Positions 52,072 through 62,604 are shown, counted from the stretch's first letter. The stretch: 64,000 nt of DNA from Massalongia carnosa (GCA_965645245.1 OZ287077.1:2046001-2110000); one strand, 5' to 3'. The notes: a model not told the origin generated them from the letters alone. Translations and numbers: made by a program.

Positions 52072-54684
52072 ATGGGTGTCTCAGTCGCCCTCTTCGTTGG
52101 ATCTTTCGTCTACTTCATCATTAATGCCAGCGCAAAGGAGCATGGCATTGTTGGGTTTGGTATATCCTTTTACCAGGAACTTTGTTGTCAAGCATGTCAC
52201 GATTCACTCTCCTCCCTCTACCTCAATTGCACCACATTCACCGAAAGCGGTGACACATCCATGGAAATGAATACGGATATGAAAATAATGGGTACGACCA
52301 GCGACGAATGTTACGCTTCCAACGTTCCATGGCTACAAACGATGGCATATTGTATTCAGCAACGTTGTGATGCCGAGGGTTATGGCGCCAAAAAGCAGGC
52401 AAAATGCTTCAGTAAACTAGCAGTTGCCGGTGCTCTAGAGCCAACTCTCCAGAACAGTTTGCCAACTGCAGCTCCTACAGCCGAGCTATTGGAAGACGCA
52501 ATGTGGCTCAACGTCACCAGCTTGGTGAATAGTAATGTCTATTACAACACTCGTGGCAGTCTGAAAGAGTTCGCAAGATCTGAATATATTCACACAAGAT
52601 ACTCGTATGTTCCTCTTTTTTGTGTGACTTCAGCTATTCTAGACTTTCTTTCCGAGCATGAAACTCACGGTCAATTTCTAGTTTGATACTCTACCTTATA
52701 ACCATTGGTATCTGCATCGGCTGTGGCGTCCTGGCCCATACTAGAAGCGCATTCCCTGGATTTCAGAAACGACTATACGCCTCGAGTCTGTGGAGAAAGC
52801 TTCAACAGTATATCTTCCTTCCAGCTCTGTTTGGATCTCGTCGTCTGGAACCTCTTCCGAAATACATTGGCTATGTACCAGGCAGGACACTCGGCATCTT
52901 CATCGGCATCTACGTCGTCTTGAACATCATTCTATCTTCCGTTTCCTTTCGCAACTTCTGGCCCAATACCATTTTCACATCCAAGGCGTTCGAGATGTGT
53001 GAGTACGTAGGAAATCGAACTGGGACTCTCAGTCTAGTCAACATAACTATCGCCGTCTTGTTTGCAGGTCGGAATAACATCCTGATCGCTGTCACTGGAT
53101 GGAGTCAGACAGCATTCTTGACATTTCATCGATGGGCTGCGAGAGTGGCTGCTGTGCAAGCTGTCGTACATTCCATCGTTTACACGTTGGCGTATTTTGA
53201 GCCACCAACTGGTGGAGCGGGAGCTTATGCTAAAGAAGCCGCAATGTCTTTCTACGTATGTCTCTAGGGCCTTTCCATTCAACAGCAATTTCACACCCGT
53301 CTCATATCATGCCTTGCGAATACTCGAAAAGTTTCGATGCTGCAGATCGTGTTCTCTACGAATTCCACCATGAGCATTACCCATCACTGACACCTTCTAA
53401 TAGTGGTGGGGTATTATAGCAACTATAGCCATCTGCCTCGCAACAGCCTTCGCAACGCTACCCATCCGCATCAAATTCTACGAGTCCTTCTTGGTCATTC
53501 ACATCGTCCTTGTCATTCTCGTCTTGATAGGATGTTGGTACCACCTAGTTCCCCATTTTGGCCATGCCTACGGTTACGAAGTCTGGCTATATATCGCTTT
53601 CGCCTTCTGGTCTACCGATCGACTTGCTAGGTTAGTGCGCGTCGCATACTACAATCATATGGGCGACTCAAGGGCGATTGTGGAAGCAATTCCAGACTGT
53701 GATATCATGCAAGTCACTGTCTTCCCACGGGTTGCTTGGAACTTCGGTCCCGGGCAGCACAGCTTTCTCTATCTCCCTGGACTGGGCAAGTTCTGGGAAA
53801 GTCATCCTTTTAGTATCGCGAGTTGGGGCAGGCAAGATCAAAGATCACGCACCGCTTCTGCGACTGCCTTTAATTCCGACAACAAAAATGAGGCAGAAGT
53901 GAAGGGTTCCTGTATTGCGTCCCAAGTTTCAGACCTAGAATCCCAACCCAACCCCACAGCAAAGAATCAACAAACAAAGCTCTCGGCCCCAATGCGGGTT
54001 CACGATGGTACATATATTCAATTCCTAATCCGTCCACATTTAGGAACGACCTGTGCTCTCCGACGCCGACTTTTGACCTCTCCATCTAGCTCCAGCATGG
54101 AGATAGCTATCTACACCGAAGGCCCCTACGCAGGCCATCGAGCAACCCTCCAGCCACTCTCTATCGCAGACACTGTCTTATGTCTCGTCGGTGGCATTGG
54201 CATCACTAATGCACTTGGATTCGTTCAAGAATACATGAACGCGGGATCCCATGGTGGTGAGGATTCAGGAAAGCGCCGTGGGATTATGAGAAAGGCCAAA
54301 CGATTCATACTAGCTTGGTCTGCTAGAGAATTGGCTCTCATCAAACACGTGAAGAAGAGCTTCCTCGATCAAACAGATGATGCTGGAAGAATTGAGTGTT
54401 CGTTTTGGTGTACTGAACCCTCTTATACTACCGCGCAAAAGTTAGCTTTCTTTGATGATGAAACTCGAAAGGATGAAAGTTCAAGTCCGGGAACAACAAC
54501 AGTTGTGACGGCAGGAAGAATGGAGATTGGGACTGTGATGAGATCTTCCCTGGAAGCAGGTCTTCAAACAACTGTTTTGGTTTGTGGGCCTGGGAGCATG
54601 GCAGATGAAGCTACGAGGCAGGTTGTAAATTTTGTAAAGGAAGGATTCAGAGTGGATTTGATTGAGGAGGCTTTTGCCTGGTAG
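52072..54684 (+). CDS. Ferric/cupric reductase (FRE family) with signal peptide and Cys-rich ectodomain, ~795 aa, 3 exons (52072-52604, 52682-53255, 53404-54684)
   Basis: GT-AG introns 52605-52681 and 53256-53403 join in frame. Motifs FHRW...VHS, IHI...YH, HPFSIAS, EGPYAG, GGIGIT, CGP and EEAFAW. Confidence 0.93.
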
Positions 54685-55610
54685 TTGTTCCGTTTAACAT
54701 GTTGTTAACATGTTACACTCTCTCCTCCCCTTTCTCCGTTATCATTCTATTTTTCGATTTGAATTTCAGCAGGCACGTTCCATTAACACTATGAACGTAC
54801 GTCGACTGTAGTAAATCCCATGATCGATACCGGAAAAGTCTCATTGACTATACTTGTTATGCGTGCTTATCCTCATAGCATTCAGGATCAGGAGCTCAAT
54901 TCTTTTACCACCTATCAATGAGCCTGCAAAACGATACAGCTAGATCCATTATACAGTCCACCGCCTCCGTAAAATTGACTTCCGAGTTCTGGGGTGGCCG
55001 AGTAGCTCAGCGCCCAGATGTGCGCAATATTGAGAGAGTAACGAGTCAGTTAGTATATTTGTTCATATGCATGCTAAAGCAACGGTAGACGTGTACGTAT
55101 TCCCATATAAGTATAACTTCGTAATATACACTGACTATATACGTTGCTAAATCTTCTACTCGCCTAAAATACAAATCAGAAGGGCACTTATAGGATATGG
55201 TAGTCCGGGGAAAGCTGCGTGAAGCCGGTGGCGCTGTAAGTATATGCGTGTTCGCTTTAAAGGGTGTTCTCGACGTAATGTGGCTTTTCCTCAGTACATG
55301 TCTTCCCAGGCATGTCGAGTGGGCACGTCTATGGAGCACTAGCAGGACCCAGTTGCTCTCATGCAAGCTTTTCGAGAAACATGCTCGCCTCCATGTATCT
55401 CTTATAAGATTCGAGGCTCTCGCGCTAGGTATCCTATCATCAAAACAGAAGCATCCTAGAGCACTTCAGACATTGATCGAAGTCATCAATTACATCGTCA
55501 ACGATCTCTCGTCTTCGAGGCCAGTCATTGCTGTGTGAAATCAAAGTCACATGAGCTGGACTCCCAGACGTACATGCGTATCGCATCCAGAATACCTTAG
55601 CTGTAGCATT

Positions 55611-60995: not shown

Positions 60996-61824
60996 GATCA
61001 CTGGTATTAGGCCAGGCGAGTTTCTGGATTGTGCAGCTGTCTGAGGAAGAACAAGGCTGGATGGTGCACTTCTGATTGATTTTTGGCTCCGCTGATATGC
61101 CAAACTTCAAACCCCAGTCGCGTTGGAAAAGCTCCAAGCACGTAAGCAATCTTTGCCTGAAAGCATGTCGCCTAGTTGTTATACCTGCTCGATTTGTGAG
61201 ATAAGGAATGACTAGTTGGGCCGAGAGTCCGTTCTAGCTTCGCATGAATCACGAAGACTCACTAGACTGTTCTGCTTGATTGAATAAGCTCCCTACTATA
61301 TAAGTGCCTTATCTATCCTATAATTGGAGGACGTACTGTTAGTTCTAACGAATGCCATTGTCCAACAGTCTTTACACTAGGAGGCCCATCTACAAGGGCC
61401 GACGGTTGGATAGACTTGACCAGTAGGCACCCTAGTCGTTGGAAGGGCTGTGCTTGTGAATGGCACATGGGTAACTATGGGTATCATAGTCGAGTGGGTA
61501 TTTAAGTGTATTCAAGTGCATTGATCTAGCCTTATAGAGAAAGTACATGGGTTAACATGCTCAAAACCCTAAGATAAACACTCTAACTTGCTCAAAATAC
61601 CTAATTGCAACAAGGGTCTAAAGACTCAAGATACATTAAAGCCTAGCTTACCTTATTATGATGACTATAGTGCTAGAGTCAGTGCTAGTACTGGCAATAT
61701 CAATTCAGGTGATGCAGATGCATGGTCTCAACACACACAGGAAGACCTTTAGCCGTGCTGCTTTCTTCATTTCCTTCCCAGATTCGCAATCCGCCACGGT
61801 TCAACGCAAAACGTCATATTAGCC

Positions 61825-62604
61825 ATGGTCGATACCGACCAACTCGCAAATGGCTATACCTTCGTCAATGACACCCAATACGATGCTGGGCTATTCCTCC
61901 TCAAAAGACTGGCAATAGCCCGAGGCATGCGCGTCCTCGACGTCGGCTGCGGACCGGGTAACCTCACAGCCCACATAGCTGAGCTCGTCGAGGAGAAAGG
62001 AAGTGTCATTGGTGTGGATCCAAGCACAGAGCGTATCGCCATTGCACGCAAGAAGGCCATGCCAAATCTATCATTCTACGAGGGACGAGCCGAAGACCTC
62101 TCACAATTTCCTACGGCTAGTATTGATGTGGTATTTGTGAATTCGACTTTTCACTGGGTGGAGGACCAGCCTTTGGCACTCACTGAATTTGCACGCGTGC
62201 TGAAGCCGGGTGGTCGTCTCGGTATCTCCGGTGGTTCTGGAGACTTTGTCGCTGCGCATGAGAAGATCAAGGCGGATGTGCTGTCTCGAGAGCGCTATCG
62301 CAGCTACCCCGAGGACAGTCCCCCAAAATTCTTGAAGCGGCGCGAGCTTGAGAATCTAGTCGAAAATGCTGGGTTTGTGAACAGAGAAATTGTCATCAAT
62401 ACGATTGTCAAGTCGGCTAAGGATGCGGAAGCGATGATCGAGTGGTTGGATACGAGTTCATCCGGGAAGACATATGGCGGTATCCCTCTTGATCTACGGC
62501 CAAGTGCAAAGGACGAAATGAAGCGGGAATGGGACAAGCTTACCACAGAGAAAGGAATCCAGATGAAGATGGAGCTGTTGGTCACTGTGGCCACCAAAGC
62601 TTGA
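61825..62604 (+). CDS. Class I SAM-dependent methyltransferase (UbiE/Tam-like), 259 aa, intronless
   Basis: VLDVGCGPG, GVDPS, DVVFVNSTFHWV and RVLKPGGRL. Divergently transcribed from the P450. Confidence 0.92.
   Translation: MVDTDQLANGYTFVNDTQYDAGLFLLKRLAIARGMRVLDVGCGPGNLTAHIAELVEEKGSVIGVDPSTERIAIARKKAMPNLSFYEGRAEDLSQFPTASIDVVFVNSTFHWVEDQPLALTEFARVLKPGGRLGISGGSGDFVAAHEKIKADVLSRERYRSYPEDSPPKFLKRRELENLVENAGFVNREIVINTIVKSAKDAEAMIEWLDTSSSGKTYGGIPLDLRPSAKDEMKREWDKLTTEKGIQMKMELLVTVATKA

Follow-up and report, generated by a model that had tools for sequence, protein, structure and literature searches.

What does a fungus do with a cluster of five genes that includes an opine dehydrogenase, with no classical biosynthetic core enzyme evident in the sequence scanned around it? 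The question is raised by a 64,000-nucleotide stretch of the Massalongia carnosa genome (GCA_965645245.1 OZ287077.1:2046001-2110000), which we refer to as the window and in whose 1-based positions all coordinates are given. Pfam searches place a FRE metalloreductase, a PF02317 opine dehydrogenase (ODH), an MFS transporter, a cytochrome P450, and a class I methyltransferase (MT) within 10.5 kb (52072-62604). On balance, we lean toward the view that this region is the fungus's copy of a Pezizomycotina-wide copper-starvation ODH cluster, making an exported opine-type product for copper uptake. The cluster is real and biologically coherent, and belongs to a type that has already been published, of which it is one more example. 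A first-pass annotation of this DNA had implied that the finding was novel, but the cluster and the opine-metallophore hypothesis appeared in print in 2025-2026, and as a preprint in 2023; because the cluster, its copper response, and the metallophore hypothesis are all in print, the window adds another carrier and not a discovery. What seems to be new is the enrichment of Mac1-type sites across species, the reading of a Trichoderma harzianum motif as a pair of copper-responsive elements (CuREs), the enzyme-level differences from the bacterial Cnt pathways, and the variable membership of FRE and the copper transporter gene Ctr.

The five genes, with lengths in amino acids (aa), are as follows.

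52072-54684, plus strand: FRE-type metalloreductase, 795 aa; exons 52072-52604, 52682-53255, and 53404-54684; introns 52605-52681 and 53256-53403; Pfam domains Ferric_reduct, FAD_binding_8, and NAD_binding_6
55611-56687, plus strand: opine dehydrogenase, 358 aa, intronless; Octopine_DH, E = 1.8e-48
58560-56920, minus strand: MFS transporter, 509 aa; exons 58560-58322, 58265-57809, and 57753-56920; introns 58321-58266 and 57808-57754; MFS_1
60995-59306, minus strand: cytochrome P450, about 511 aa; exons 60995-60945, 60894-60655, 60605-60359, and 60303-59306; introns 60944-60895, 60654-60606, and 60358-60304; p450, E = 8.5e-61
61825-62604, plus strand: methyltransferase, 259 aa, intronless, divergent from the P450 gene; Methyltransf_11, E = 1.9e-24

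Splice models were obtained by enumerating in-frame GT/GC..AG introns that join exon-sized open frames. Only one valid model exists for the MFS gene, and in the P450 gene one intron is of the GC-AG type (60358-60304) and another uses an AAG acceptor. The P450 start codon lies at 60995, at the head of a 17-codon first exon that opens MFLQF and has a matching structure at a homologous metagenome locus (L004, see below); the start near 61233 that had been annotated previously was discarded, as the long open frame reaching that position contains no ATG. Transcripts were available from a poly-A metatranscriptome (run X11), in which contigs from a relative could be placed on the region; of the small-share sequencing runs X6-X14, X11 alone enters the evidence. 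Eleven such contigs, two at 95-99% likeness and nine at 90-95%, cover all five genes, and their joints (52601>52683, 57753>57811, 58264>58321, 60303>60359, 60597>60655, and 60890>60946) bridge six of the seven predicted introns, the GC-AG intron included; the seventh, FRE intron 2, is seen as a loose end at 53404. With six introns bridged and every gene covered by RNA, the five genes are therefore intact, transcribed, and spliced in a close relative, and the earlier description of five intact genes at 52072-62604, with ODH intronless, agrees with the Pfam matches, the splice models, and the relative's RNA. In a DNA run labeled as a lichen metagenome, a single 7459-base contig spans 51518-58954 with 99 differences. 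A contig of DNA run X5 skips 117 bp between FRE and ODH (54825-54943), an indel polymorphism in the promoter region.

Do these genes belong together? They could be chance neighbors lying between transposons with no shared function, and it is true that the window is transposon-rich and rearranged and that FRE, MFS, P450, and MT are all large, common fungal families. Metagenome contigs were scanned with an alignment of 17 fungal ODHs, yielding 47 loci, and exon pieces from the window were then run against these by tblastn. Each of the 21 loci whose ODH is of fungal type (47-77% identity) has at least one further cluster gene alongside it; at the 26 loci whose ODH is of bacterial type (23-38% identity), no cluster partner is present. 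Together with a shared, enriched promoter motif (see below) and the co-regulation of the genes in Pseudogymnoascus destructans and T. harzianum (PMC12113139, PMC12855858; published work is cited throughout from excerpts of the papers), this leaves us giving chance almost no credence, and the co-localization in other fungi that the first-pass annotation proposed as a check is borne out. Because several loci are near-duplicates (L004/L005, L003/L011, L008/L016, L013/L014, and L001/L002), the 21 loci represent about 10 distinct organisms.

The membership of the cluster is not uniform. Five distinct loci have 10 kb of sequence on both sides of ODH, and among these MT is present in five, MFS and P450 in four each, and FRE in two. 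Over the larger set, 15 of the 21 fungal-type loci have MT next to the ODH cluster, and MFS is syntenic in L004/5, L007-L010, L012-L016, and L021; FRE homologues lie upstream of ODH in the full-flank loci L002, L003, L004, L005, and L011, and parts of FRE are found at the contig edge in L007, L009, L010, L018, L021, L024, L039, and L047. A Ctr copper transporter gene is located just past P450 at L003:16272-16709 (minus strand; also in the near-duplicate L011) and at L006:6888-7295 (minus strand), and the Ctr genes of L003 and L006 each have one TGCTCA within 1 kb upstream; a tblastn search of the window found no Ctr gene. The conserved unit is ODH, MT, MFS, and P450, which FRE and Ctr join in some species only. 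At L021, where there is no P450 homologue, a 2-oxoglutarate-Fe(II) oxygenase gene lies between MFS and MT (L021:7618-8463, minus strand) and may provide an alternative oxygenase for the same pathway.

Gene order is reshuffled across species with the genes still together. The order in L004/L005 is FRE (plus), ODH (plus), MFS (minus), MT (minus), and P450 (plus), whereas the window has the divergent pair the other way around, as P450 (minus) and MT (plus). This P450-MT block is inverted relative to all other loci and is bounded by two repeat spikes; recombination between inverted repeats was considered as the cause and rejected, because no inverted repeat joins the two breakpoints. Six named genomes have ODH and MT locus tags that either follow one another or differ by two to three (PAC_17075 and PAC_17077; M1831_003658 and M1831_003657; M1820_006097 and M1820_006096; M1821_004399 and M1821_004400; ACMFMG_008351 and ACMFMG_008350; PFICI_04108 and PFICI_04105). 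Among the matches listed, ODH homologues are 67-89% identical and come from across Pezizomycotina, including Helotiales, Sordariomycetes, Dothideomycetes, and lichen-forming lineages, an unusually high conservation for an enzyme of secondary metabolism; MT homologues are 70-87% identical among the matches listed.

Beyond the cluster, the flanks are otherwise unrelated among loci. Pfam found no core synthase in 120 of the 175 flank open reading frames (ORFs) of at least 100 aa from eight related loci, the remaining 55, mostly overlapping longer ORFs, having been removed by eye. In the window, 24 ORFs were scanned (23 of the 37 that reach 150 aa in 1-52000, and one below that length), with the sequence beyond 64 kb outside the scope of the scan, and none has polyketide synthase, nonribosomal peptide synthetase (NRPS), or terpene synthase domains, as the first-pass annotation had reported, nor those of a dimethylallyltryptophan synthase or isocyanide synthase. 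These results support the view that the five genes stay together as a conserved unit and that, in the window and flanks scanned, no classical core enzyme belongs to it.

What, then, is the unit for? By family content it can be likened to one in P. destructans named Cu-Responsive gene Cluster, or CRC (VC83_01834-01838; PMC12113139, 2025), which encodes a metalloreductase, an MFS transporter, an opine dehydrogenase, a SAM enzyme, and a P450. These five families are also those of the window, and P. destructans is a Leotiomycete, whereas the source of the window was judged to be probably a Helotiales-like ascomycete, and so a Leotiomycete too. The CRC genes are upregulated on copper withholding and repressed by copper overload, and its authors propose an opine-like metallophore; they also describe P. 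destructans as being without isocyanide synthases (PMC12113139). At the protein level, four of the five products were detected, and copper withholding increased PdSAM more than 70-fold and PdOpDH 20-fold; purified PdOpDH and PdSAM served that study as loading standards (PMC13208438, 2026). This copper regulation fits the Mac1-type sites that we describe below for the window, although the excerpted passages of the CRC paper make no mention of Mac1 sites in the CRC promoters, and the order of the genes differs, being FRE, MFS, ODH, SAM, P450 by locus tag in the CRC and FRE, ODH, MFS, P450, MT in the window.

Another published counterpart is the plant communication associated (PCA) cluster of T. 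harzianum, in which pca1-pca7 encode FRE, Ctr, a Tri101-like transferase, ODH, MFS, MT, and P450 (PMC12855858, 2026). Its FRE (pca1), ODH (pca4), MFS (pca5), MT (pca6), and P450 (pca7) genes are ordered as in L004/L005, and the Ctr gene beside P450 in L003/L011 and L006 parallels pca2. The PCA cluster adds Ctr (pca2) and the Tri101-like acyltransferase (pca3), both of which are absent from the window. The nearest sequence link between the window and the published clusters is the MT of T. virens, which is 71% identical to the window MT.

The promoters of the cluster genes bear on how it is controlled. A set of 29 promoter or intergenic regions, 22.5 kb in total, was assembled from the window and nine distinct loci, and the most enriched 7-mers found in it de novo are GTGCTCA, TGCTCAA, and GCTCAAA. 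TGCTCA is present 40 times in these promoters (1.78 per kb), compared with 92 times in the remaining 190.9 kb of those sequences (0.48 per kb), and 25 of the 29 have at least one copy; in 500 mononucleotide shuffles the mean was 10.3 and the maximum 21. Among 2077 hexamers it ranks first, with 40 occurrences against 11.0 expected (Poisson 1.2e-11, in a test that is partly post hoc), followed by the overlapping GCTCAA, and 41 sites yield the extended consensus WAAnnTGCTCAAA, in which the flanks are informative too. This top hexamer is also the Mac1 core recovered from Fusarium by chromatin immunoprecipitation sequencing (ChIP-seq): the F. oxysporum Mac1 consensus is DHNTGCTCANNN, and its targets are Ctr, Fre, sod3, and crm genes (PMC11563359). 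The sites in the window are as follows.

51731-51736, plus strand: TGCTCA, Mac1-type, about 340 bp upstream of FRE
58830-58835, minus strand: TGCTCA in the MFS promoter
59225-59230, plus strand: TGCTCA in the MFS promoter / P450 3' region
61558-61594, plus strand: two direct TGCTCAAAA sites (at 61558 and 61589), 31 bp apart, in the divergent P450-MT promoter

The strict CuRE octamers were set aside in favor of this core, as they have no promoter matches in the window: TTTGC[TG]C[AG] is found eight times in 64 kb, twice inside the cluster and never in a promoter, and the octamer TGTGCTCA has no match in the window. The palindrome YGHGSAADHTTSCDCR, described as novel in T. harzianum, can be interpreted by pattern logic as a pair of inverted Mac1 half-sites, because its half-site TTSCDCR includes both TTGCTCA and the yeast form TTGC[T/G]C[A/G]. 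There is no exact match to YGHGSAADHTTSCDCR in the window cluster or in the 47 loci. One mismatch allows a single window match, CGCGCAAACATGCTCA at 39055-39070 upstream of a second FRE gene, where 0.82 would be expected by chance; this CuRE-like inverted pair is not evidence on its own. A Mac1 core shared by the cluster promoters of many fungi would link two published clusters that have been interpreted differently. The crm isocyanide cluster of Aspergillus and Fusarium is also induced by copper starvation and bound by Mac1, with TGCTCA promoters (PMC11563359), but it has an isocyanide synthase-NRPS-like core, and the window cluster is without such a core in the ORFs scanned.

Copper control could nonetheless be incidental to function. 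Plant recognition induces the PCA cluster by as much as 1000-fold, strains deleted for pca1 (FRE) or pca5 (MFS) barely colonize roots, and the authors, who like those of the CRC have put forward an opine metallophore, weigh both signaling and metal acquisition, treating the cluster in the first place as a matter of plant signaling and not of copper starvation (PMC12855858). The product could thus be a secreted signaling or antimicrobial metabolite for interactions with plants or microbes, with copper merely the cue for a host or competitor setting, much as the crm products are reported to be antibacterial though they are Mac1 targets (PMC11563359); P450, MT, and MFS genes are, moreover, typical tailoring and export genes. 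We consider this unlikely, as an embedded FRE, and in some species a Ctr, speaks for metal uptake rather than signaling, and the carriers include a bat pathogen, lichen fungi, and saprotrophs, whose ways of life differ widely. Even the plant induction in T. harzianum comes with co-induction of two unlinked genes, one FRE and one Ctr, resembling a copper-starvation response (PMC12855858).

The chemistry of the pathway can be approached through the families of its enzymes. The fungal 'tryptopine' opine synthases (PMC12536604) were considered as relatives of the ODH and rejected, since they belong to another family, PF18631. The closest solved relative is N-(1-D-carboxyethyl)-L-norvaline dehydrogenase (CENDH) of Arthrobacter (PDB 1bg6), which a fungal ODH profile matches with E = 7.8e-35 (residues 5-344 of 360 profile positions); the match to scallop octopine dehydrogenase (3c7a) is partial, with E = 0.0076, and that to the CntM-type yersinopine dehydrogenase (6c4l) covers the Rossmann N-terminus only, with E = 0.13. 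Pfam assigns the helical C-terminal domain PF02317 to residues 179-324 and, for the Rossmann fold at the N-terminus, NAD_Gly3P_dh_N to residues 6-106, and matches no family beyond Octopine_DH and generic Rossmann, and the ESM Atlas returns generic Octopine_DH clusters only, mostly bacterial. In the 17 fungal sequences the GxGxxG glycines (G11, G13, and G16) are invariant, as are H196, R287, and D292, which align with H202, R292, and D297 of 1bg6, residues that we take to be catalytic. By these comparisons the ODH is of the CENDH/octopine type and not CntM, which makes firm the first-pass annotation's description of it as Arthrobacter/octopine-type and not clearly CntM. CENDH is a stand-alone bacterial enzyme, and the bacterial homologues that we recovered are likewise without cluster neighbors.

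The SAM enzyme matches 21 Pfam methyltransferase families, and its best PDB matches are phosphoethanolamine N-methyltransferases (E = 6.5e-13); no nicotianamine-synthase family is among the 21 Pfam matches and no CntL among the PDB matches listed, and as far as homology can tell it is an ordinary Methyltransf_11 methyltransferase and not CntL-like. P450 exon 4 has only generic CYP3-like microsomal P450 matches in PDB, and the C-terminal half of the MFS transporter has no PDB match.

A comparison with the bacterial Cnt systems for staphylopine, pseudopaline, and yersinopine is instructive at the level of logic, in that metal starvation induces an NAD(P)H opine-forming dehydrogenase, a SAM-using enzyme, and an exporter. 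However, the Cnt systems use a CntM-type ODH and CntL, a nicotianamine-synthase-like aminobutyryl transferase, neither of which was matched in the window cluster; the window cluster is without a racemase and without an ABC importer, and a P450 and a surface reductase are added. Its MFS gene and enriched Mac1-type sites are analogous to the Cnt exporter and metal control, not homologous to them. The analogy with the CntL-CntM pair that had been drawn for this locus therefore fails at the enzyme level, with MT being a Methyltransf_11 enzyme and ODH lying outside the CntM family; with a methyltransferase and a CENDH-like ODH, staphylopine-like chemistry is not to be assumed.

Opine dehydrogenases reoxidize NAD(P)H in anoxic invertebrate muscle, and the ODH here could similarly serve as a copper-sparing bypass, reoxidizing NAD(P)H via pyruvate and an amino acid when copper-dependent respiration fails, with the MFS transporter excreting the end product and that product playing no part in metal binding. 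In cephalopods, opine dehydrogenases act as the terminal enzymes of glycolysis (PMC12536604); P. destructans, under copper withholding, alters its respiratory chain and increases alternative oxidase (PMC13208438); and the high ODH identity across classes noted above is more than secondary metabolism usually shows. Nevertheless, we regard a bypass as improbable, because it leaves unexplained the constant MT (five of five distinct full-flank loci) and P450 (four of five), as well as FRE and the association with Ctr, and because in copper-starved P. destructans ODH ranks no higher than about 961st in protein abundance, which is low for a bulk redox enzyme (PMC13208438).

Opine dehydrogenase reactions are reversible, and a further possibility is that the ODH works oxidatively, cleaving environmental opines for nitrogen after their import by the MFS transporter. 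The T. harzianum paper points out that opines can supply fungi with nitrogen and that genes for nitrate and nitrite reductase were co-induced (PMC12855858), but copper, not nitrogen, regulates the P. destructans CRC (PMC12113139, PMC13208438). The Mac1-type promoter sites and the linkage with FRE and Ctr also run counter to opine catabolism, which leaves the methyltransferase without a role, and we view it as very improbable.

We therefore return to an exported opine-type product for copper uptake, which would work as follows. First, when copper is scarce, a Mac1-type activator would act on TGCTCA in the four promoters and switch on all five genes, as the motif enrichment and the copper regulation published for another species suggest. 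Second, the CENDH-type ODH, given its family and conserved catalytic residues, would use NAD(P)H to condense an amino acid with an alpha-keto acid into an N-(carboxyalkyl) amino acid, which MT and P450 may then tailor and the MFS transporter may export. Third, FRE would act at the cell surface on Cu(II), free or bound to the product, reducing it so that it can be taken up by a Ctr transporter, whose gene lies beside the cluster in some species but not in the window. Such a pathway would resemble that of the bacterial opine metallophores in its working and use different enzymes. The opine/metallophore interpretation of the first-pass annotation is partly supported by the linkage, the lack of any core enzyme seen, the CENDH-type ODH, the published copper regulation, and the TGCTCA enrichment, and survives without its CntL-CntM analogy and its novelty.

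A broader proposal, which we hold tentatively and with less confidence than the reading of this locus itself, is that Pezizomycotina, lichen-associated fungi among them, widely possess a Mac1-controlled pathway that has no core synthase and whose enzymes, unrelated to CntL and CntM, make the first eukaryotic copper carrier of opine type. PCA and CRC would then be the same copper-starvation module, with the PCA palindrome an inverted Mac1 pair, and the plant induction and colonization defect in T. harzianum would reflect copper limitation at the root and not signaling.

Several points weigh against a copper-uptake role. The copper regulation was measured in another species, and the RNA run used here is without a known copper condition. 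Full-text literature searches, with supplements outside their scope, returned no paper identifying the cluster product or metal binding in any species, and neither Pseudogymnoascus nor T. harzianum has an entry among the 120 best ODH or MT matches listed. FRE is absent within 10 kb of ODH in three of the five distinct full-flank loci. With regard to the promoters, the motif was chosen from the same data in which it was tested, and the regions are not fully independent, with short alignable patches common to L002, L003, and L006, although they are otherwise mostly unalignable; exact TGCTCA is absent from the window ODH promoter (54685-55610), which carries the variants TGCGCA and TGCTCG instead, and the window shows no enrichment of the strict CuRE octamers of yeast and Aspergillus. 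Finally, because there is no enzyme of the CntL/nicotianamine-synthase type, a product that is a simple opine would offer fewer metal ligands than staphylopine does.

If the copper-uptake reading is correct, it matters because the small-molecule copper carriers reported for fungi in the excerpted literature surveyed are of the isocyanide type only, and an opine-based second route would widen the known means of fungal metal acquisition. An opine-type cluster would also be missed by genome mining based on core enzymes.

The surroundings of the cluster are rich in mobile DNA, with pogo/Tc5-type fragments immediately upstream (49.8-51.3 kb) and debris of pogo/Tc5, Mutator-like (MULE), gypsy, and copia elements in the rest of the window. 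Depth in the DNA runs spikes about 40-fold in three places (51.5-51.9 kb, about 58.99-59.08 kb, and beyond 62.73 kb), the second of which corresponds to the following feature.

58986-59080, strand not assigned: short high-copy repeat between MFS and P450, at one edge of the inverted P450-MT block

The depth of this repeat is about 34,800 in run X1, compared with about 890, and contigs break at 58985/59081. The cluster had been described as free of transposable elements and flanked by transposons; the flanks are indeed transposon debris and high-copy repeats, but since such repeats border the cluster and also interrupt it once, at 58986-59080, the first part of the description is only nearly right. 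The high-copy repeats at 58986-59080 and 62728-63500 (about 40 to 150 times single-copy depth) flank the P450-MT block. Beyond MT, a 262-bp element resembling a miniature inverted-repeat transposable element lies at 62817-63078, with 32-nt terminal inverted repeats that are 88% complementary; its insertion appears to be polymorphic, because DNA contigs of three runs also skip 62811>63079. A perfect tandem repeat of 16 nt, AGGGGGACGGCTGGCG, occurs at 63649-63710, where no fewer than three 30-nt copies overlap.

Elsewhere in the window, a Mutator-like element at 8603-11664 (plus strand) has ORFs that match AFT/FAR1 DNA-binding and MULE transposase domains, the AFT match being to a transposase DNA-binding domain and not an iron regulator. 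A 386-aa ORF at 21682-22842 (plus strand) with a weak jacalin-like lectin domain (E = 3.2e-5) is the sole ORF noted outside the cluster that is neither transposon nor FRE. The second FRE gene, which is divergent in sequence, lies at 36720-38726 (minus strand), with its promoter extending to about 39100, in an island of 56-60% GC compared with about 45% for the genome. Its only in-frame stop (37914-37916) is probably within an intron, because it falls at the same Ferric_reduct profile position as intron 2 of the cluster FRE. The best homologues of this second FRE are 33-42% identical, and the named matches are ascomycete FREs and two entries labeled Quercus suber.

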